From a phage, in the sequence record PZ019086.1: DNA of 64,000 nucleotides; one strand, given 5' to 3'. Numbering within the stretch: position 1 is the first letter of the stretch; every line of letters starts with the position of its first letter. A program made the translations under genes and the position numbers. A model generated the notes under the pieces. That model was not told the DNA's origin, ran no database searches, and saw only the letters and a program-made list of their open reading frames with translations. Shown here one piece after another: positions 30,845 through 56,660 of this stretch.

Positions 30845-31108
30845 TTATTTTAATGTTCGCCAAATTTTTACTGCTTCGCGACGAGATACTTCTACAGCTC
30901 CAAGTTCTACGGCTTTTTGGCGGCGGCGCGCGTGTAAGTCATAATGTTTAATGCGTTTATCTTGAAACCAAGAGCGTTTCATTCCTATTGCTTCTGCCAT
31001 TTCATGAAGCTCTTCAATATCTCCATCAGTGAACATATGACAATTTTTAGTTGGATGACCGCGAAGTTTCCATCCATGATTCATTAAAACATCTACGTAA
31101 ACTGTCAT
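30845..31108 (-). CDS. Small conserved protein (DUF4031-like, nrdC.11 position)
   Basis: 87 aa, MTVYVDVLMNHGWKLRGHP...; family assignment from memory. Confidence 0.55.
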   Translation of the reverse strand: MTVYVDVLMNHGWKLRGHPTKNCHMFTDGDIEELHEMAEAIGMKRSWFQDKRIKHYDLHARRRQKAVELGAVEVSRREAVKIWRTLK

Positions 31109-31254
31109 TGATTCTGCTCCAAATATGTTTCTATAATTTTCTGAGCGAGATAAACTGCGTTATCTTCAGTTGCATCTTCTAAGAAATTTTCAAAACAAGC
31201 TGAAATCTCTTCTGTGTCAATCAACTTTTTTACTTCAATTAACGTAGTTTTCAT
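31105..31254 (-). CDS. Small acidic protein (49 aa), not in ORF track
   Basis: ATG with GGGGAATAAA RBS right after an early promoter; stop overlaps next start (ATGA); approximate. Confidence 0.4.
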   Translation of the reverse strand: MKTTLIEVKKLIDTEEISACFENFLEDATEDNAVYLAQKIIETYLEQNQ

Positions 31255-31283
31255 TTTATTCCCCAAATCCACATCAGTTGATA

Positions 31284-31347: not shown

Positions 31348-31367
31348 AGGGAGCCCGAAGGCTCCCT
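31348..31367 (-). terminator. UUCG-loop hairpin closing the accessory island operon
   Basis: agggagcccgaaggctccct directly 3' of the nucleotidyltransferase stop; approximate. Confidence 0.55.
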
Positions 31368-31368
31368 A

Positions 31369-32379
31369 TCATTTATAATAACTTCGATGGTTTTCAAGAT
31401 AGACCTTCTCAAGGAAGTCATCCCAGAAACTCATGTCTACTTTTTGCTGCATACCGTTCTTAGAAGCTTCAGTAGATGCTGCTTCTACTTGATCGACCAC
31501 ATCTTCCAAAAACTCTTGAACAATTTTAAATGGATGTTTACCCAACTTCACGTCGAGAATAAATGGAGCGTCTTGAAGTGGATAGACTAAGTCACCAGTT
31601 TTGTAAATTTCCAATAGTTGAAGTCCACCACGACAAGCATGGCTCAGAGCTTTCCAGTCAATACCTTCGTTGGCTTCGGCCTTACGGGCACGTTCACCAT
31701 ATTCAGCATCTAATTTGTTCAGTGACTGCTTAAGCTCAATAAGAGAAAGCGTTGTCTGATATTTACGACCCAACACAGTGTAAAACGTTTGTGGACCTGT
31801 TTTCTCATGATTATGGAACACCCATTCACAGAATTCGTTTTCTGGAAGACGATGCTTAATATCTTCAACTTTAGTACGACGCTGCTTAATGGAACCGTCT
31901 TCTTGGTAATCAACCCATTGCTCAGGGATTTGATTAACTACTTTCAATACATCGCGTAATGCAGCCAAACGAGAACCCTTGACACCGTATTTAGAAGCTT
32001 GCTTGCGGACATATCCTAAATAGGATTTCATGTTAGTCGTATAAAAACGAGAACGATTGTCTTGAATAAACTTCCATACATCAGGCAAATCAGATTTAAC
32101 CACTAGCTCGGGTGGAGTGTGGAGCATATCCAATGCTACAGTTTCACCATCTGCTGCTAATTTAAAGAAATACTTAAGACTGTATAGTTCATGGTCAATA
32201 TCATCTTTAGTGTTTTTAGATGATGTGTTGTTAGTGTTTTTACTCATATGCTCTTTAACATTTCCGATAAGAATATCGCGAGCAGGAGGAACAAAGATTT
32301 CTTTAAAATCTACATCAGATTCTGGAGTAGAAGTTCCATAAAGATGACTACCAAAATAAGACTTAACTACAGTTTTCAT
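31369..32379 (-). CDS. Polymerase-beta superfamily nucleotidyltransferase-like protein with C-terminal helical domain
   Basis: 336 aa; N-terminal GS-x9-DVD motif (YFGSHLYGTSTPESDVDF) and a third acidic residue about 60 aa later (ETVALDML); ATG overlaps upstream stop (TAATG); AAGGA RBS. Confidence 0.65.
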   Translation of the reverse strand: MKTVVKSYFGSHLYGTSTPESDVDFKEIFVPPARDILIGNVKEHMSKNTNNTSSKNTKDDIDHELYSLKYFFKLAADGETVALDMLHTPPELVVKSDLPDVWKFIQDNRSRFYTTNMKSYLGYVRKQASKYGVKGSRLAALRDVLKVVNQIPEQWVDYQEDGSIKQRRTKVEDIKHRLPENEFCEWVFHNHEKTGPQTFYTVLGRKYQTTLSLIELKQSLNKLDAEYGERARKAEANEGIDWKALSHACRGGLQLLEIYKTGDLVYPLQDAPFILDVKLGKHPFKIVQEFLEDVVDQVEAASTEASKNGMQQKVDMSFWDDFLEKVYLENHRSYYK

Positions 32380-32840
32380 TATTTATCCTTATATTCAATA
32401 ACAGGACATACTTTAGCTTTACTCGCTTTTAAAAATTCGACGATAATAGATTTCTTGGGTTGAATAGGAGGTAAACCTTTATACGCCCTATCAATATTTT
32501 CTACATGTAAAGCATAATCCTTTTTCCATTTATAATCTTTATATTTTTCACGCAGTTGTACAGGAATAACAAATGAACCAATAATAAGTAAAACAAGCAA
32601 AATGACAAGTACAAATGCTGATGGAATAAGAGTCCATAAACTACCAAAAATAAGCCATTTCTGTATGATTTCTGCACAGATGATAGTTAGACCTGCGAGT
32701 ACAGTACATCCGAAAAAAGAAACGAAAAATGTAGGGATAACAATAGACCAAAAGTATGCACATAGTGTCTTAGGTCGTTTCCATTCATCATTAAACATTT
32801 TGAATAATTTATAATGCCAAGAGTTTTCATTAATAATCAT
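32379..32840 (-). CDS. Small membrane protein (2-3 predicted TM helices) translationally coupled to the nucleotidyltransferase
   Basis: 153 aa; hydrophobic segments FWSIVIPTFFVSFFGCTVLAGLTIICAEII and LIPSAFVLVILLVLLIIGSFVI; basic C-terminal tail. Confidence 0.6.
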   Translation of the reverse strand: MIINENSWHYKLFKMFNDEWKRPKTLCAYFWSIVIPTFFVSFFGCTVLAGLTIICAEIIQKWLIFGSLWTLIPSAFVLVILLVLLIIGSFVIPVQLREKYKDYKWKKDYALHVENIDRAYKGLPPIQPKKSIIVEFLKASKAKVCPVIEYKDK

Positions 32841-32842
32841 AA

Positions 32843-33364
32843 TTATCCTTTCATTGAAGGTGTAACAGTTGTTAAATACTTAATCATAGCTTCAGCTTCT
32901 GATTTTGATAATGAAATTTCTCCATTGTTTTGACGAATAGAAATAAAATCCGGATGACGGTCACCACCAGCTTTTAAAACACACATGTAAGTATCAACTT
33001 CGCCTTCAATATTTGAAATGATTGAAGCAGTTCCACATGAATGTGGTTGTTGATAAACTAATACAGCTTTTCTTCCACCGTTTGACTGTTCATAAACTTT
33101 TAACACATCAAACAAATCACTTCTTTTATCAATAGCTAAGATGTTGTTTTCATCTTCAATGTTAAATCCTTCGGATATTTCATAAAGTGTCACCCATAAA
33201 TCGCCAATATCAATGACAGCATTCACCTTTCCATGATTTTCAAGAGCATTACAAATTTTCTTAATTTCATCATAACTCATTTTAATAATATCATCTCCTT
33301 GAATAAAGAAGATGTCATTTTTAAATTCAACGCGAATTAAACCACTTTCACTTGAAATAAACAT
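32843..33364 (-). CDS. Hypothetical protein, paralog A of a tandem pair
   Basis: 173 aa; shares GFNIE-E and C-terminal IRQ...L-K-EA--L-KYL--V-P-M pattern with the adjacent 183-aa protein. Confidence 0.6.
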   Translation of the reverse strand: MFISSESGLIRVEFKNDIFFIQGDDIIKMSYDEIKKICNALENHGKVNAVIDIGDLWVTLYEISEGFNIEDENNILAIDKRSDLFDVLKVYEQSNGGRKAVLVYQQPHSCGTASIISNIEGEVDTYMCVLKAGGDRHPDFISIRQNNGEISLSKSEAEAMIKYLTTVTPSMKG

Positions 33365-33370
33365 ATTTCC

Positions 33371-33922
33371 TCACTTTGAAATCATAGTTGGAATGACAGA
33401 ATCAAGATAAGTCTTTAATAAAACAGCTTCTTCTTTGTTTAATACAACAACATTAACATCATTTACCGATTGACGAATAGTTAAGACATCTCCCTCTTCA
33501 TAGCATTTTGATACATTTAAAACAGTTTCATAATTTTGATTACAAGCGTTAGTAATAATAGCATTGCAATTTTTAAACCATTTTAAACCATGTTTTCTTT
33601 CATTAGAATAATAGAAATATTTAATCTTAGCTATAAAATTATCCCAATTATTAATTGATAAGCATATTGACTCGCTTTCAATATTAAATCCTGGGCATAA
33701 AGAATAAAAATGAATTTTATGCTCATCATTAATGCTTACAATTTTATCAGTGTATGGTTTTTCAATTTGGGTTAAATGAATAATTTCGCTAGGCGTAAAA
33801 TATAGCATATCGTCTTCTTGCGTCAAACGATACATATTATTTACTTTTTCTATAGCCAATTCACCAAAAAGTGAACTAACTTCTAGTACTAATCGTTTCA
33901 TATTAATCCTTTTTATTGGCAT
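33371..33922 (-). CDS. Hypothetical protein, paralog B of a tandem pair
   Basis: 183 aa; see paralog A. Confidence 0.6.
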   Translation of the reverse strand: MPIKRINMKRLVLEVSSLFGELAIEKVNNMYRLTQEDDMLYFTPSEIIHLTQIEKPYTDKIVSINDEHKIHFYSLCPGFNIESESICLSINNWDNFIAKIKYFYYSNERKHGLKWFKNCNAIITNACNQNYETVLNVSKCYEEGDVLTIRQSVNDVNVVVLNKEEAVLLKTYLDSVIPTMISK

Positions 33923-34169
33923 GAATTTGTTCTAAAATTTTAGAGTATTCCTTTGTATCAGATTTACGTACAATCGATACACTATAAGGCATACTATCGG
34001 TGTCTTTTATAAAGCGTTCCAAATGACACTCTAACAAAATTTCTGGGTTATAAATCGTGTACATCAAATTACCTGTTGCTCCACGATATTGACAGATTTC
34101 TACTGATTGAGCATCATTCCACAATTTTGTTAAGACTAAATCGCCTACTTCTAATTTAGGAAAGCTCAT
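33903..34169 (-). CDS. Hypothetical small protein
   Basis: Start moved from track TTG to ATG at 34169 (MSFPKLEVGDL...). Confidence 0.5.
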   Translation of the reverse strand: MSFPKLEVGDLVLTKLWNDAQSVEICQYRGATGNLMYTIYNPEILLECHLERFIKDTDSMPYSVSIVRKSDTKEYSKILEQIHANKKD

Positions 34170-34170
34170 G

Positions 34171-34356
34171 TTATTCACCAATTAAAGTTTCAATATAAGA
34201 ATCAAGATTTACTTTAGCTTCTTCCATAAGAGTTTTGTATTTAATCTTATTAGCATGTCCGGAGAAAGCTGATTCATCAATAACTGTTGATGCATGAACA
34301 GCTTTACTATACATCTCAATTAATTCTCTTAATTTAAAAGCCTGCTCACTTGTCAT
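34171..34356 (-). CDS. Hypothetical small helical protein
   Basis: 61 aa; ATG start overlapping upstream small-ORF stop. Confidence 0.5.
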   Translation of the reverse strand: MTSEQAFKLRELIEMYSKAVHASTVIDESAFSGHANKIKYKTLMEEAKVNLDSYIETLIGE

Positions 34357-34460
34357 TACATGCTCCTTTGAATAATATCAATAATGTTGTTCACCAGATT
34401 ATAAGTAAACATTGGGTAATTATATTGAATCATCACATACACAACAAACAAAACTTTCAT
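34356..34460 (-). CDS. Small hydrophobic peptide (34 aa), not in ORF track
   Basis: ATG with AGGAGAAGAGA RBS just downstream of an early promoter; TAATG overlap with next gene; approximate. Confidence 0.35.
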   Translation of the reverse strand: MKVLFVVYVMIQYNYPMFTYNLVNNIIDIIQRSM

Positions 34461-34484
34461 TCTCTTCTCCTTGGCAGTTGGCAA

Positions 34485-34520
34485 GATTACTATATCATAA
34501 CCTTGCCAACTTGTAAACCA
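34485..34520 (-). promoter_or_regulatory. T4-type early promoter (internal to the island)
   Basis: Minus-strand GGTTTACAAGTTGGCAAGGTTATGATATAGTAAT; approximate. Confidence 0.5.
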
Positions 34521-34676
34521 TTAAATGACGTTTTCAATAAAATTCTGGAGTTTTGTGTGAGCATCAACCATGATTTTCATTTCTTCCTTTGCAAAAGCTA
34601 TGCCTCTTTCCCTAGAAGAACACTCATAGTCAGAAACTGCATTAGCATATTCTTCAATTAGCTTCATTAAAAACAT
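34521..34676 (-). CDS. Small protein (about 51 aa), not in ORF track
   Basis: Minus-strand ORF MFLMKLIEEYANAVSDYEC...; approximate. Confidence 0.3.
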   Translation of the reverse strand: MFLMKLIEEYANAVSDYECSSRERGIAFAKEEMKIMVDAHTKLQNFIENVI

Positions 34677-34683
34677 CTGCTTT

Positions 34684-34878
34684 TCAGTTTTCATTATTCC
34701 ACCTAATCATTTCAAGATATTGAACTAACTTAGCTTTAGATTTATCCAAATCTCTTTTAGCTGCTTCTATACCATCGTATGAGTATCCTTCACAATGCTC
34801 AACTGCTAATTGGTATGAATCTATTTCAACATCACGTGCTAATTTAATGATTTTTTCAAACTGTTCACGCGTTAGCAT
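34684..34878 (-). CDS. Hypothetical small helical protein
   Basis: 64 aa; ATG start. Confidence 0.5.
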   Translation of the reverse strand: MLTREQFEKIIKLARDVEIDSYQLAVEHCEGYSYDGIEAAKRDLDKSKAKLVQYLEMIRWNNEN

Positions 34879-34880
34879 AC

Positions 34881-35084
34881 TTAAACTCTCGTATTATGAT
34901 CGATAATTTCATCAAGAAACATATCTAAAGCTTCTACAGCATTATCAACTTTAGCTTCAAGTTCTTCAGCATCTTTATTTGCAATGCCTGACGAAAACCA
35001 AGCAAAGTCACTAAGTTCCTCATCTGCTTTGCGAATTAAAGCTACCAATTCTTTAATTTTATCTGCTTGTTCAATGCTAATCAT
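34881..35084 (-). CDS. Hypothetical small acidic helical protein
   Basis: Start set to in-frame ATG at 35084 ([13 protein letters not shown]...), TAATG-coupled to upstream gene. Confidence 0.5.
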   Translation of the reverse strand: MISIEQADKIKELVALIRKADEELSDFAWFSSGIANKDAEELEAKVDNAVEALDMFLDEIIDHNTRV

Positions 35085-35272
35085 TATTCCACCACATATG
35101 AAAGAGAGAATATTGCACACGCCATGTGAGTTGCAGCTTCATCACACATATCATAACGTTTCTTAAGAAGTTCTACAAGTTCTTCACTAGTAACGTCATC
35201 CACGTTGACGAAAAAATCACCATTAATGATGACGTAGATATTTCCTTCTTGATTGAGTGCTTCAATTTTCAT
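35084..35272 (-). CDS. Hypothetical small protein, first gene of the island operon
   Basis: Start set to ATG at 35272 with AAAGAGGAG RBS; the track N-terminal extension overlaps the promoter. Confidence 0.5.
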
Positions 35273-35295
35273 GATGTTCTCCTCTTTATCCGATG

Positions 35296-35332
35296 GTTGT
35301 ATAGTATCACAGCTCAAATGGAAAGTAAACCG
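35296..35332 (-). promoter_or_regulatory. T4-type early promoter driving the accessory island
   Basis: Plus strand tgtatagtatcac...agtaaac; approximate. Confidence 0.6.
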
Positions 35333-35345
35333 GTAAAATGAAAAA

Positions 35346-35363
35346 AGTCTCCCGAAGGAGACT
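35346..35363 (-). terminator. UUCG-loop hairpin after rI.-1
   Basis: agtctcccgaaggagact; approximate. Confidence 0.5.
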
Positions 35364-36902: not shown

Positions 36903-37088
36903 TTAAAGCGTATTCACATAAGCTATTAATTCGTTTTCTTTCTTATCAAACCGGTCAGCAAATTCTTCCTGTTGTTCGGGAGATAGCGGGCCATATTCAT
37001 CATAAAAGGTGTTTGCTTCTGTATGCTCATCTAGAAGTTCATGGATAAGCTCAAACAATTTATCTTTTTGTTCTTTACTCAGACTCAT
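36903..37088 (-). CDS. Hypothetical small acidic protein (tk.1)
   Basis: 61-aa ORF. Confidence 0.5.
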   Translation of the reverse strand: MSLSKEQKDKLFELIHELLDEHTEANTFYDEYGPLSPEQQEEFADRFDKKENELIAYVNTL

Positions 37089-51590: not shown

Positions 51591-52303
51591 TATAGTACCT
51601 TTAGTGTATTTTTAATTTTAGAAAAAAGTTCTTCAAGAGAACCATCGTTTGTAATTACTAAATCGCCATCACGAATTGGCAATCCAGCTTCTGTAATATG
51701 AGTATCATTGGATTTTTGACCAGGACGAACTACATGAATTACTGTAGCACCCATCGCCCTAGCCGCATCCATTTCATGGTCTTGACGAGTATCAGGAACG
51801 ATATAATAATCATAACCTGAGTTAAATTTATCAAGATAATCTAAAGCAAATAATTTTACCCAATACATGCGGTCGAAGTTATTAACAATCAAATCCGTAC
51901 CTAGGGCTTGCATCAGACGACGGACTGACCATTGATCTTCAATATTATTTATAACGTCAATAATCTTGTTAAATGCTACGAAATTAACTGCGTCATCAAA
52001 AACACACACACCCTTAATTGGGCTTTTACTATTAAGATAGCAAAATGCTTGTTCCATAATCGTAATTACTTCTAATTTAGTCAGATTTAAATTAGTCTCG
52101 CGATCATAGTCAATTCCTTCAAACTCTTTACGAGTTAAACAAGGATAGTCAGTGTTTGCTACGAATACGCCCCATGCATAAGCCAATGCATCTTTAATAG
52201 GACCAGCAAGTTGATATTTAACTGCAGAATAATTATTCATGATAAAATCTGCGGTAGTATCTTTTCCACTACGCTTTACACCACTTAAAAAGATTAGTTT
52301 CAT
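51590..52303 (-). CDS. 1: Deoxynucleoside monophosphate kinase
   Basis: 237 aa; P-loop MKLIFLSGVKRSGKDT. Confidence 0.9.
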
Positions 52304-52352
52304 ATGTTTCTCCTCAAATTTAGTTAAGATTATAACACATGAAACTTAAGCA

Positions 52353-52883
52353 TTAAACTTCTGCTATAATTTTGCCATCTTTTTCTACTTGAAAATACGT
52401 ATAAGGAATCGTTGCTGTGCATACTAAGGCTGGGTCTGAATCTTCTGTGTAGCTAAATTCTACTTCAGACAGGTCAGAAACCCAGGGCTTATAAAAATTT
52501 ATTGACATCACGATTTCAGTTTTACTATTATCTAAAATGTAAAGCGTAATGTATTCAGGACCTGTTTTTTGGGCAGTATTTTCGCCTGTAAGATAGTTAC
52601 TAGTTCCTAGCATCCATTCATACATTCCTATCCACGACTTAAGCTCTTCATCAACTATAAATCTCACAATGAGTGGGTCGTACTCAAATGTAACTCCTGG
52701 ACGCTGTGCTCGGCCTAGTCCAAACGGCCCAGTCACGGTATCAGTAACAGGTATCCTAATTCCCGGAATAGGAACTGACTGAGCATTTAAAGTAAAAGCA
52801 GATGTAGTATTACTATGCGGTATTGATACTACAAAGTTAGTTGTATTTGCTTGGTTAAAAATTTGTTGTAGTGCTTGCGACAT
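52353..52883 (-). CDS. 3: Tail sheath stabilizer / tail completion protein gp3
   Basis: Start moved to ATG at 52883 (MSQALQQIFNQANTT..., 176 aa as T4 gp3) with GAGGAA RBS. Confidence 0.85.
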   Translation of the reverse strand: MSQALQQIFNQANTTNFVVSIPHSNTTSAFTLNAQSVPIPGIRIPVTDTVTGPFGLGRAQRPGVTFEYDPLIVRFIVDEELKSWIGMYEWMLGTSNYLTGENTAQKTGPEYITLYILDNSKTEIVMSINFYKPWVSDLSEVEFSYTEDSDPALVCTATIPYTYFQVEKDGKIIAEV

Positions 52884-52989
52884 ATATTCCTCATAATGCT
52901 TTATAAATGTTGGTGGTATAATGGGTCTAAGTCCCTTCCATTCAATTCCAATTAGAACAAACAATAGAAAAGAATGGAAGATAATAGAA

Positions 52990-53814
52990 TTAGATATTTG
53001 ACCAGACTTTGTTTGCAGAGAAACGTTTTCCTTTTGAAACGAACTGCTGAAGTGGCATTAACACAACGTTCGCCCAGTCTTTCGGGGCGATTTCAACAAG
53101 ACTACCCATGATATTACCAGGTATATATGCCTTAATCATTTGGTCTGCACCCCTAAATCCTTTCACTTGACTCCAATCAATTTTTAATTTCGTTTTATTA
53201 GTAATAGTAGGTGTATTCGAATATTGCTTTAAAAGCTCTTCTAGAAATTGCTGACGAGCTTTAGGTGGAATATAGTGCAAGTTCAATCCGTACATTAAAT
53301 TATGTTTACCTAAACCAAGATAAATTATCAAAGGAAATTTATCCCAGTAAGGAAGAGTTTCCTTGTGTTTAGCATCATAAGCAAAAGCATATATTCGTCC
53401 CGGCTGAGGGCGAACAACTTTATGTCCTTTTACTTGCTTAATAGTTTCAGCAAACCACTTTCTGGTTTTATTATTAATTGCTGCGCCTTCATTACGAATT
53501 TTATCACGCAATGTTTGCCTGAATGAATTTATCATAAGCAGTTGTCTTTCTTGCTTATTGAGTTTATTCATTGGTTTTGATTCAAGCTTTTGAATCTTTT
53601 CAGCTGTTTTAATTCCTGAAGCATATTTTGACATTGCCGAAGTAAACGTAGAGTATTTGATTCCTCTTACTTCGGCAAATTGCTTTCCTGTCATTCCTTT
53701 TGCTTTGGCCTTTTTGTATTCAAGACCTATCTGAATCCATTTCTTTTCGTTTAATGATTGCTTAACCTTTGGAACTTGGGGAGTGCTTTCATTAATTATT
53801 TGAAAAATAGCCAT
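52990..53814 (-). CDS. 2: DNA end protector protein gp2
   Basis: 274 aa as T4 gp2; overlaps gene 4 stop. Confidence 0.85.
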
Positions 53815-54266
53815 TATGCCCCCTTAAAGCCAAGAGCCCGTAATCCATCTTCTGTTAGAATTCTAAATTTTATTCCACGCTTTTCAGCTAAAGATTGTGC
53901 TGCTTTCCATTTGTCAGTATTAACAGAATATGTATAAATTTCATTCATAAATCTTTTCTTCGCTGCTGTTGTTAGATGTGCTGGTTTAACTGGTGGTTGT
54001 GTTTCTTTTTTAGGTTTTATTTCAATAAAAAATTCTTGTCCAGAAGAATCTTTCATCCAAATATCCATGAAGTATCTACGTTTTTTCCCTTCTGCATTAC
54101 AAAAATAAGGAATTACTGCTGTTTCACTACCCCATGCAATAATTTCTGGATTTTTATCTAACCATTCAAAAAAGAATTTTTCCCAATTTGATCTATACGT
54201 AATTTTTTTAGGGTCACCTCTATATTTTGATATATTTTTAGGAACCCATTTTCCAGAATATGCCAT
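53814..54266 (-). CDS. 4: Head completion protein gp4
   Basis: 150 aa as T4 gp4. Confidence 0.85.
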
Positions 54267-54277
54267 TGGATTCTCCT

Positions 54278-54285
54278 TATAAATA
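54278..54285 (+). promoter_or_regulatory. T4 late promoter TATAAATA for gene 53
   Basis: TATAAATA about 29 nt upstream of the 53 ATG; approximate. Confidence 0.55.
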
Positions 54286-54290
54286 GATAA

Positions 54291-54298
54291 TATATTTA
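54291..54298 (-). promoter_or_regulatory. T4 late promoter TATAAATA for gene 4 (divergent from the gene 53 promoter)
   Basis: Minus-strand TGTTTATAAATATATT about 25 nt upstream of the gene 4 ATG; approximate. Confidence 0.5.
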
Positions 54299-54313
54299 TA
54301 AACAGGAGGGCCC

Positions 54314-54904
54314 ATGCTCTTTACATTTTTTGATCCGATTGAATATGCGGCCAAAACAGTGAATAAAAACGCGCCGACTATTCCTATGACAGATATTTTT
54401 AGAAACTATAAAGACTATTTCAAACGTGCTCTTGCGGGATACCGCTTACGCACTTATTATATCAAAGGTTCACCACGCCCGGAAGAATTAGCAAATGCTA
54501 TATATGGAAATCCACAGTTGTATTGGGTTTTATTGATGTGTAATGATAATTATGATCCGTATTATGGATGGATTACTTCGCAAGAAGCTGCTTATCAAGC
54601 ATCTATACAAAAATACAAAAACGTAGGTGGAGACCAAATAGTATATCATGTGAATGAGAACGGTGAAAAATTTTATAATTTAATATCATACGATGATAAT
54701 CCATATGTTTGGTATGACAAAGGCGATAAAGCTAGAAAATATCCTCAATATGAAGGAGCACTTGCTGCGGTCGATACGTATGAAGCTGCTGTTCTTGAAA
54801 ATGAAAAACTTCGTCAAATAAAAATAATAGCAAAATCAGACATCAATTCATTTATGAACGACCTTATACGTATAATGGAGAAATCTTATGGAAATGATAA
54901 GTAA
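54314..54904 (+). CDS. 53: Baseplate wedge protein gp53
   Basis: 196 aa as T4 gp53; ATG preceded by GGAGGG. Confidence 0.9.
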   Translation: MLFTFFDPIEYAAKTVNKNAPTIPMTDIFRNYKDYFKRALAGYRLRTYYIKGSPRPEELANAIYGNPQLYWVLLMCNDNYDPYYGWITSQEAAYQASIQKYKNVGGDQIVYHVNENGEKFYNLISYDDNPYVWYDKGDKARKYPQYEGALAAVDTYEAAVLENEKLRQIKIIAKSDINSFMNDLIRIMEKSYGNDK

Positions 54905-56660
54905 TAACCTTAATTGGTTTGTTGGTGTTGTTGAAGATAGAATGGACCCATTAAAATTAGGTCGCGTTCGTGTTCGTGTTGTTGGTCTGCATCCACCACA
55001 AAGAGCACAAGGTGATGTAATGGGTATTCCAACTGAAAAATTACCATGGATGTCAGTTATTCAACCTATAACTTCTGCAGCAATGTCTGGAATTGGAGGC
55101 TCCGTTACTGGTCCGGTAGAAGGAACTAGAGTTTATGGTCATTTTTTAGACAAATGGAAAACTAACGGAATTGTTCTTGGCACGTATGGTGGAATAGTTC
55201 GCGAAAAGCCTAATAGGCTTGAAGGATTTTCTGACCCAACTGGACAGTATCCTAGACGTCTAGGAAATGATACTAACGTATTAAACCAAGGCGGAGAAGT
55301 AGGATATGATTCGTCTTCTAATATTATCCAAGATAGCAATCTAGACACTGCGATAAATCCCGATGATAGACCACTATCAGAAATTCCAACTGATGATAAT
55401 CCAAATATGTCAATGGCTGAAATGCTTCGCCGTGATGAAGGATTAAGACTAAAAGTTTATTGGGATACTGAAGGATATCCGACAATTGGTATTGGTCATC
55501 TTATCATGAAGCAGCCAGTTCGTGATATGACTCAAATTAATAAAGTTTTATCAAAACAAGTTGGTCGTGAAATTACCGGAAATCCAGGTTCTATTACAAT
55601 GGAAGAGGCGACAGCTTTATTTGAACGCGATTTGGCTGATATGCAACGTGACATTAAATCACATTCTAAAGTTGGCCCAGTTTGGCAGGCAGTTAATCGT
55701 TCTCGTCAAATGGCATTAGAAAACATGGCATTTCAGATGGGTGTTGGTGGTGTAGCTAAATTTAACACAATGTTAACTGCTATGTTAGCAGGAGATTGGG
55801 AAAAAGCATATAAAGCTGGTCGTGATTCATTGTGGTATCAACAAACAAAAGGCCGTGCATCCCGTGTTACCATGATTATTCTTACGGGAAATTTGGAATC
55901 ATATGGTGTTGAAGTGAAAACACCGGCTAGGTCTTTGTCAGCAATGGCTGCTGCTGTAGCGAAGTCTTCTGATCCAGCTGACCCTCCTATTCCTAATGAT
56001 TCGAGAATTTTATTTAAAGAACCTGTTTCTTCATATAAAGGTGAATATCCATATGTTCACACAATGGAAACTGAAAGCGGTCATATTCAGGAATTTGATG
56101 ATACCCCTGGGCAAGAACGATACAGATTAGTTCATCCGACTGGAACATATGAGGAAGTATCACCGTCAGGAAGAAGAACAAGAAAAACTGTCGATAATTT
56201 GTATGATATAACAAATGCTGATGGTAATTTTTTGGTAGCCGGTGATAAAAAGACTAACGTCGGTGGATCAGAAATTTATTACAACATGGATAATCGTCTT
56301 CACCAAATAGATGGAAGCAATACAATATTTGTGCGTGGCGACGAAACGAAAACTGTTGAAGGTAATGGAACTATCCTAGTTAAAGGTAATGTTAAAGTAG
56401 TTATTCAAGGAACAGCAGATATAACTGTTGAACAGGAAGCATACATAACTGTTGAAAAAGACACGACTGTTAATGTTAACCAAAACGCAGACATAAGTGT
56501 TAAAAATAAAGCAACTGTTAATGCTGAAAATATGGATGTCAACGTTGAGCAAGATTTAAATTTTTCAGCGACAAATATTAATTTAAGTGCATCTAATACT
56601 GTTCATATGGATGGCGGGGTTCTTTCTAAAGTATCAGGTGGAAACGTACAGGTTGGTTAA
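54888..56660 (+). CDS. 5: Baseplate central spike with tail lysozyme domain gp5
   Basis: 590 aa; OB-fold N-terminus, lysozyme domain MAEMLRRDEGLRLKVYWDTEGYPTIGIGHLI, C-terminal beta-helix repeats (VKGNVKVVIQG...). Confidence 0.9.
   Translation: MEMISNNLNWFVGVVEDRMDPLKLGRVRVRVVGLHPPQRAQGDVMGIPTEKLPWMSVIQPITSAAMSGIGGSVTGPVEGTRVYGHFLDKWKTNGIVLGTYGGIVREKPNRLEGFSDPTGQYPRRLGNDTNVLNQGGEVGYDSSSNIIQDSNLDTAINPDDRPLSEIPTDDNPNMSMAEMLRRDEGLRLKVYWDTEGYPTIGIGHLIMKQPVRDMTQINKVLSKQVGREITGNPGSITMEEATALFERDLADMQRDIKSHSKVGPVWQAVNRSRQMALENMAFQMGVGGVAKFNTMLTAMLAGDWEKAYKAGRDSLWYQQTKGRASRVTMIILTGNLESYGVEVKTPARSLSAMAAAVAKSSDPADPPIPNDSRILFKEPVSSYKGEYPYVHTMETESGHIQEFDDTPGQERYRLVHPTGTYEEVSPSGRRTRKTVDNLYDITNADGNFLVAGDKKTNVGGSEIYYNMDNRLHQIDGSNTIFVRGDETKTVEGNGTILVKGNVKVVIQGTADITVEQEAYITVEKDTTVNVNQNADISVKNKATVNAENMDVNVEQDLNFSATNINLSASNTVHMDGGVLSKVSGGNVQVG

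Follow-up and report, generated by a model that had tools for sequence, protein, structure and literature searches.

The Y05I gene pair and its setting

The phage sequence record PZ019086.1, examined here as a stretch of 64,000 nucleotides (the window), contains two adjacent minus-strand genes whose products both belong to the Y05I protein family. An initial annotation of this DNA had described them as a diverged tandem pair of paralogues of unknown function. The surrounding DNA is the tk-rI-mobD-nrdC segment of a Tequatrovirus (T4-like phage), with minus-strand genes for thymidine kinase, the RI antiholin, RI.-1, a run of small open reading frames (ORFs), the pair itself, a membrane protein, NrdC.11 and NrdC.10. 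Both ORFs of the pair lie on the minus strand where they had been placed, between positions 32843 and 33922. The relevant features of the locus are as follows.

32843..33364, minus strand: downstream paralogue of the "RB32ORF097c" type (here ORF097c), 173 amino acids (aa); Y05I family, with a predicted PUR/Whirly-like N-domain (~1-98) and C-terminal domain (~99-173)
33371..33901, minus strand: upstream paralogue, corresponding to T4 mobD.1 (Y05I_BPT4) as its orthologue; 176 aa when read from the likely start
33902..33922, minus strand: seven-codon 5' extension of the 183-aa ORF, overlapping the upstream Tudor-domain gene at its 3' end; probably not translated within MobD.1
32379..32840, minus strand: predicted membrane protein of 153 aa, "RB32ORF096c" (here ORF096c), PHROG 944; conserved downstream neighbour
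31348..35363, minus strand: probable transcription unit mobD.5 ... mobD.1, ORF097c, ORF096c, nrdC.11, bounded by two strong hairpin and T-run terminators

The two proteins align end to end by BLASTP: of 174 aligned residues, 24% are identical and 47% positive (E = 9e-9). Their Smith-Waterman score of 114 is not reached in any of 2000 shuffles (31.2 ± 5.0, maximum 56; z = 16.6), and the N-terminal halves (z = 9.6) and C-terminal halves (z = 7.1) are each significant alone. The GFNIExE block and the C-terminal IRQ...LxKxEA...YLxxVxPxM pattern, to which the initial annotation had drawn attention, are both seen in this alignment. Each protein also carries the Pfam domains T4_y05I_N (PF24449; 113.6 bits for the 173-aa protein and 136.7 bits for MobD.1, gathering cut-off 24.9) and T4_y05I_C (PF24448; 78.5 and 63.8 bits, respectively, gathering cut-off 27) above threshold and in N-to-C order, and both match PHROG 1502 over their full length (E = 1.6e-64 and 6.3e-75). 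Together, the alignment statistics and the joint family membership confirm, at the level of sequence, that the two genes are homologous and true paralogues. The pairwise alignment by which the proposal was to be checked thus found a significant similarity, and the label of unknown function still holds at the experimental level. No third copy was found with the family hidden Markov model (HMM) among all six-frame ORFs of the window.

Of the two protein sizes first given, that of 173 aa stands, whereas the upstream protein is most likely of 176 rather than 183 aa, beginning at ATG 33901 and not at ATG 33922. A Shine-Dalgarno sequence, AAGGA, precedes ATG 33901, which is situated two bases past the stop codon of the preceding gene (TAATATG); no such sequence precedes ATG 33922. 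ATG 33901 is also the start annotated in most records and the point at which homology with the Mosigvirus and Dhakavirus orthologues begins. The seven-codon extension is unconserved (MSESKRIN versus MPIKRIN) and is absent from RB18, Mosigvirus and JS98. The start at 33922 was rejected on this Shine-Dalgarno and homologue evidence. In the window, neither ORF is disrupted and each has a good ribosome-binding site.

T4 mobD.1 (product: UniProt P39240, Y05I_BPT4; 81% aa identity) is the direct orthologue of the upstream gene, which sits in the matching place, towards mobD.2 on one side and nrdC.11 on the other; RB14, RB18, G50, Mosigvirus and Dhakavirus keep this order as well. The downstream gene is alike in its two-domain architecture, although its identity to T4 MobD.1 is only 24-26%. 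It is the same gene as RB32ORF097c/RB14ORF98 (NC_012638; 92.5% aa identity, with like neighbours), from which it differs as an allele. T4 itself is without ORF096c and ORF097c, which fill the slot held there by the HNH homing-endonuclease gene mobD, between nrdC.11 and mobD.1; a note on RB32ORF096c in the RB14 record reads "replaces mobD". The RB14 GenBank/RefSeq record already labels the downstream gene "similar to mobD.1", and the pair is thus already catalogued in Pfam, in PHROGs and in the RB14 note on similarity. Other records use the product names [quoted passage not shown], "helicase loader" or "putative SSB protein"; these are annotation noise, and the first is clearly derived from the T4 gene name.

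Wider searches point to a narrow family. A phmmer search of 1.84 billion cluster representatives with the 173-aa protein brought up nothing beyond the cluster to which it belongs, fragments and three chance hits of a repetitive kind, while word-indexed searches, including a profile search, returned T-even-phage proteins only, and a scan of IMG/VR gave 4 Tequatrovirus loci. An NCBIfam scan produced no matches, and nothing significant was found among solved structures by sequence or profile, where the best match, to the anti-CRISPR AcrIIC5 (E = 0.098), was taken as chance. A literature search for "y05I" and "mobD.1" found no functional study; the y05I matches were false, and mobD.1 turned up only within a table of homing-endonuclease insertion sites. 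Within the searches made, the Y05I family appears restricted to T-even-type phages of enterobacteria, and no annotated relative suggests a function.

By megablast, the segment 32300-34300 matches 504 phage records, nearly all of Tequatrovirus from Escherichia, Shigella and Yersinia hosts, with a top identity of 97.5%. The terminators that bound the probable transcription unit lie at 35363-35346 and 31367-31348 and are annotated at matching places in the record of phage G50; the scan that detected them found 9 sites against 1.9 expected. Both hairpins (31348-31367, after nrdC.11, and 35346-35363, after rI.-1) are perfect and GC-rich, with stems of 8 and 7 bp, TTCG/GAAG-type loops and minus-strand T-runs, and both look terminator-like on either strand. 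The genes of the unit lie close together, either overlapping or 2-8 nt apart. A promoter scan yielded 26 sites against 25.1 expected, no excess over chance, and therefore no promoter is claimed. In Mosigvirus and Dhakavirus a homologous membrane protein comes after MobD.1 and is followed by NrdC.11, such that the order MobD.1 - membrane protein - NrdC.11 is common to Tequatro-, Mosig- and Dhakavirus.

Several other features of this region were observed. Directly upstream of mobD.1 lies a gene for an 88-aa "phage Tudor domain" protein (33903-34169, minus strand; PF24144, E = 3.5e-40), which the window, G50, RB14 and pSs-1 possess but T4 and RB18 do not, and which so forms a presence/absence polymorphism. 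Beyond it, four consecutive small ORFs of 61, 57, 64 and 67 aa (34171-35084, minus strand; the mobD.2a-mobD.4 region) match the Pfam family DUF7438, as does a further ORF of 61 aa beyond tk (36903-37088, minus strand), all with E values of 1e-14 to 1e-19. This set constitutes a second paralogue family, in which very small helical proteins are arrayed in tandem. What lies between nrdC.10 and nrdC.11 varies: in the window it is an 87-aa DUF4031 protein and a 55-aa ORF (30845-31272, minus strand), in G50 a different ORF of 66 aa, and in T2 (L004 5619-6104) and a metagenomic contig (L014 5160-5645) a 161-aa Mod-like ADP-ribosyltransferase (PF26816). Farther along the window, the GC skew flips from negative to positive near 54 kb (~52000-56000), which fits a minus-strand early region giving way to plus-strand genes.

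Distribution, selection and mosaicism

Intact copies of ORF097c at least 90% identical to that of the window (90-96% in the common Tequatrovirus allele class) occur in ~430 phage records from many hosts. Below this class lie only the fragmented T2 version, at ~52%, and then matches of 23-27% to the mobD.1 of other genera. MobD.1 is found in 727 records, which fall into discrete classes: ~400 are 80-100% identical to the protein of the window, ~300 form a class at 41-44% composed of Mosigvirus and some Tequatrovirus such as RB18, and those of Dhakavirus and relatives are 31-34% identical. Mosigvirus and Dhakavirus have a single copy, MobD.1 only. Compared domain by domain, the 173-aa copy is approximately equidistant (23-32% identity) from each MobD.1 clade of the three phage genera; among themselves, these clades share 34-40% identity in the N-domain and 28-66% in the C-domain. 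Since ORF097c is about equally far from all MobD.1 clades, the paralogue split is no younger than the divergence of these genera. The old duplication envisaged in the initial annotation is thus upheld as an old split, whereas a tandem duplication in situ is not proven. An uncultured T4-like phage (L017) has one gene at this position, of the ORF097c type (P0043), and therefore the pair could also stem from recombination that stacked two old alleles. Either history, in situ duplication with later losses or recombination setting two old alleles adjacent to one another, could account for the present sequences.

The two genes vary more than their neighbours. Against seven other Tequatrovirus loci, protein identity is mostly 98.5-100% for tk, rI.-1 and nrdC.11, 90-95% for ORF097c and 81-88% for MobD.1, but only 44% for the MobD.1 of RB18. 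The ratio of nonsynonymous to synonymous substitution rates (dN/dS) was estimated by the Nei-Gojobori method as pairwise, whole-gene or whole-domain values from few nucleotide sequences. Among orthologues in close phages it is 0.12-0.33 for ORF097c and 0.30-0.54 for MobD.1, compared with 0-0.13 for the flanking tk, rI.-1 and nrdC.11. No value exceeds 0.55 when the genes are split by domain, the highest being 0.53, and genes and domains together span 0.05-0.54. Both copies are under purifying selection, somewhat relaxed relative to the flanking genes, and both are functional because they are so constrained. The diversifying selection that had been suggested for the pair finds no counterpart in these values, none of which exceeds 1 for any gene or domain; positive selection may act at individual sites, below the resolution of whole-gene or whole-domain ratios.

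When allele classes are compared, divergence is faster in the N-domain than in the C-domain. ORF097c and P0043 are 41% identical in the N-domain and 78% in the C-domain, and MobD.1 of the Tequatrovirus and Mosigvirus types are 35-40% identical in the N-domain versus 49-66% in the C-domain. The most distinct exchange is seen in RB18, where a Mosigvirus-type MobD.1, 44% identical to that of the window, adjoins a 95%-identical 173-aa gene. RB18 ceases to align with the window at the Tudor gene and over most of mobD.1; the alignment resumes within the C-terminus of mobD.1, and the adjacent ORF097c is 90-99% identical to the window at the nucleotide level. An exchange of a mobD.1 allele between genera is suggested, in which a breakpoint fell within the C-terminal part of the gene. 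The MobD.1 of RB18 (L006 2998-3540) shares 74-75% identity in the N-domain and 65-76% in the C-domain with Mosigvirus MobD.1, and only ~40% in the N-domain with other Tequatrovirus alleles, while the RB18 flanking genes are 95-99% identical. The MobD.1 of the window itself has a variant C-domain segment common to only a few phages. In P8 and ZCEC14 (L002/L003 2070-3080), otherwise the closest relatives of the window here, the 3' half of nrdC.11 is only 69-86% identical at the nucleotide level and NrdC.11 is 87.5% identical overall at the aa level, which marks another mosaic junction.

Fusions and losses are also found at this locus. A 179-aa chimera, P0021 (L014:3001-3540, L015, L016), joins residues ~1-125 of MobD.1 to the C-terminal ~55 residues of ORF097c and is the sole copy, replacing both genes; it occurs on 6 contigs, of which the three shown come from three samples, and looks like the product of unequal recombination between the paralogues. 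In the metagenomic protein P0033 (210 aa), the first ~50 residues of MobD.1 are fused to the C-terminal part of NrdC.11, the deletion having taken out the rest of mobD.1, ORF097c and ORF096c. Phage P8 has an in-frame stop in ORF097c, and mobD.1 is truncated in RB14. In the T2 record NC_054931 (L004 3052-4019), mobD.1 and the ORF097c-type gene are both split into short ORFs, and three separate pieces of another T2 record, PV648363, match mobD.1; where such a loss is seen in a single record, sequencing error is possible. The broken T2 genes could reflect decay or a divergent allele with frameshifts. A mosaic locus of this kind, with allele swaps, fusions and losses, fits an accessory and possibly host-facing role.

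Expression data exist for the T4 orthologue. T4 MobD.1 (P39240) is of the early mRNA and early protein classes, and its mass spectrometry intensities climb from the first minutes (PMC9697503 supplement). Early synthesis is therefore shown for the orthologue in T4. The nrdC.11-mobD.3 fragment can be lost from a viable genome-reduced phage (PMC9825161), which shows for T4 that these proteins are dispensable in the laboratory, as the natural losses imply also.

Predicted fold and candidate functions

AlphaFold2 models of both proteins, built from a 20-sequence alignment, have mean pLDDT values (predicted scores of the local distance difference test) of 73 and 75. The N-terminal ~100 residues score ~83-95 (about 90) and the C-terminal ~75 residues ~46-74 (about 50-60). 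Both N-domain models show the succession β4-α, β4-α, the two-repeat arrangement that characterizes the PUR family, and the N-domain is thus predicted to adopt the PUR/Whirly ("PC4-like type I") fold, as reviewed in PMC7549692. The C-domain is modelled as five strands and a long helix. By hhalign, repeat I matches the C-domain with a score of 22.4 (E = 2.9e-4), where shuffling the columns 150 times yields 8.9 ± 1.8 and at most 14.8, and the LTQEDD...(F)TPSE of repeat I aligns with the IRQxxD...(F)TKDE of the C-domain. Repeat I versus repeat II (E = 0.1) and repeat II versus the C-domain (E = 0.16) are not significant at the profile level. On these models the family looks like three related units, two in an intramolecular domain and one left over, in the manner of Pur-alpha. 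The low confidence of the C-domain as a monomer would be consistent with a unit that needs a dimer partner in order to fold.

The favoured reading, evenly balanced as a whole between being right and wrong, holds the two proteins to be diverged Y05I copies that act as early, dispensable ligand binders. Two beta-beta-beta-beta-alpha repeats would pack into one domain within the N-terminal ~100 residues, and the C-terminal ~75 residues would form a third, more degenerate sheet and helix unit resembling repeat I. By analogy with Pur-alpha, this third unit may pair with its counterpart on a second chain to give homodimers, or possibly MobD.1/ORF097c heterodimers in phages with both genes. The two N-domains would then serve as ligand-binding faces, for single-stranded RNA or DNA (as in Pur-alpha, MRP1/2, Whirly and ChmC) or for a protein (as in SsgA/SsgB), and the faster-diverging N-domain would be the likely determinant of specificity. 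The parts of this reading differ in strength: that these are functional, early and dispensable Y05I paralogues with a predicted PUR/Whirly-type N-domain is held with high confidence, and dimerization through the C-terminal unit with moderate-to-low confidence, while the ligand may be either RNA or single-stranded DNA or a protein.

Several results weigh against this reading. A Foldseek search with the 173-aa model gave nothing significant; the PUR, Whirly and PC4 families gave no Pfam match at E <= 1, no PurA hit was obtained, no Pur protein was hit by sequence or profile in the PDB, and no PDB profile hit was better than E = 0.098. The likeness to PUR/Whirly proteins is at the level of fold only, because sequence searches show no link, and the HMM match and tetramer by which members of the Whirly family are recognized were not found. 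The N-domains are acidic, with isoelectric points of 4.4 and 5.3 and net charges of -9 and -4, and the family-conserved N-domain residues (E18, Q28, D30, D31, N73, E75 and E77) are acidic or polar and not basic or aromatic. With some uncertainty, this argues against a canonical nucleic-acid face, and the profile is a better fit to SsgA/SsgB, the members of the fold that bind proteins. Confidence is low for the C-domain model, which has five strands instead of four. Additionally, heterodimerization cannot be a requirement, because T4, Mosigvirus and Dhakavirus have MobD.1 alone and L017 has the ORF097c type alone.

The acidic N-domains with their acidic or polar conserved residues speak for a second explanation, a possible one of lower probability, in which the proteins are accessory factors whose PUR/Whirly-like N-domain, as in SsgA/SsgB or in Whirly-like immunity and chaperone proteins, binds a host protein such as a defence or takeover target, the copies and alleles recognizing variants of that target. 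This puts the idea of the initial annotation into mechanistic form. It would also suit a mosaic accessory region with inter-genus allele replacement, fast N-domains and frequent loss, as well as early expression combined with laboratory dispensability, which is typical of host-takeover or counter-defence genes. Nevertheless, the strongest fold matches are single-stranded nucleic-acid binders, no partner is known, dN/dS is below 0.55 wherever measured, and the 90-96% identity of ORF097c over ~430 genomes and many hosts is unlike a fast arms race. A further explanation, that one or both copies are decaying, functionless remnants, could draw on the stop in P8, the truncation in RB14 and the T2 fragments, as well as on the absence of ORF097c from T4 and the deletable T4 region. 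It is very improbable, being largely refuted by dN/dS values well under 1 for both genes and both domains; the ORFs of the window are intact with good ribosome-binding sites, the T4 protein is detected by mass spectrometry, and ~430 genomes have an undisrupted ORF097c of at least 90% identity. A toxin-antitoxin or other two-component cassette was considered and rejected, as both proteins share one architecture and each occurs alone in some phages.

Two explanations would take the nucleic-acid binding typical of the fold at face value. The Pfam description of PF24449 and PF24448, "y05I-like putative transcription factor", would have the proteins act on phage or host promoters, in keeping with early synthesis and with a fold class that includes plant Whirly p24/PBF-2 and Pur-alpha, both originally described as transcription regulators. 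The Pfam name seems to be based on fold analogy, no paper on it having been found, and such a role is unlikely for acidic proteins that have no helix-turn-helix or other motif for binding double-stranded DNA and are encoded by dispensable genes. Transcription control in T4 is, moreover, already explained by MotA, AsiA, gp33 and gp55. The other explanation is suggested by the neighbouring NrdC.11 (31369-32379, minus strand), which matches Pfam RlaP, the RNA-repair-associated Pol-beta nucleotidyltransferases. Bacterial RlaP enzymes add 1-2 nucleotides at the 3'-OH of damaged RNA, and the T4 member is uncharacterized (PMC12776372). As RNA-repair helpers, the PUR-like proteins would bind damaged tRNA or RNA ends in partnership with NrdC.11, which would accord with a fold typical of single-stranded RNA binders and with an order, MobD.1 - membrane protein - NrdC.11, that is kept in three genera within one terminator-bounded unit. 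Yet T4-like gene order is collinear regardless of function, which makes synteny weak evidence; the proteins are acidic; and the genes are not lost together, T4 having NrdC.11 and MobD.1 without ORF097c. The P0033 deletion removes both, but it is one metagenomic case, and a repair role is hardly to be expected.

Significance and comparison with known systems

The pair is real, old, functional and already catalogued in Tequatrovirus genomes. More than 400 sequenced phages of the T4-like group carry it, and taken as a feature of sequence it contributes little. Mild novelty is confined to the three-repeat reading on the lines of Pur-alpha, which remains a prediction and concerns the well-expressed and uncharacterized early T4 protein MobD.1 together with its paralogue. 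With its fusion of MobD.1 to ORF097c and its replacement of alleles between genera, the locus also amounts to a small natural domain-swap experiment. Were the proteins to bind RNA or a host defence factor, T4 would gain one more accessory function, with no general principle changed.

Among the proteins of related fold, SsgA/SsgB of actinomycete cell division (Whirly-like fold; 3cm1, 6slc) share no sequence similarity with the phage pair, belong to another taxon and biological setting, and are without the third C-terminal unit. MRP1/MRP2 are paralogues that form heterotetramers, and ChmC, a Whirly-fold RNA binder, provides a precedent from phage. Like Whirly, these proteins have basic surfaces, form tetramers and show no sequence relationship to the phage pair, which differs from them in having no conserved basic N-domain residues and in its extra C-terminal domain.

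The closest analogy is Pur-alpha (PURA; 3k44, 5fgo/5fgp, 8chw), in which repeats I-II form an intramolecular domain and repeat III an intermolecular one, with Pur-alpha/Pur-beta heterodimers possible via repeat III (PMC7549692). Structural-alignment identity to it is 4-11%, with no detectable sequence similarity and no PurA hit. The phage N-domains differ from those of Pur-alpha in being acidic, and the third phage unit has five predicted strands, at low confidence. A 2020 review held the combination of type I and type II to be unique to Pur-alpha (PMC7549692). A bolder and rather improbable extension of the favoured reading would make Y05I a protein of prokaryotic viruses that, in the manner of the eukaryotic Pur-alpha, joins an intramolecular type I PC4-like domain of two repeats to a single-repeat (type II) dimer unit. 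In phages with both copies, its heterodimers, held together by the conserved C-terminal repeat and bearing two different, fast-diverging N-domains, would then be two-headed adaptors with specificity reshuffled by allele swaps and fusions, and their ligand would be damaged RNA, by way of the RlaP neighbour, or a host protein.

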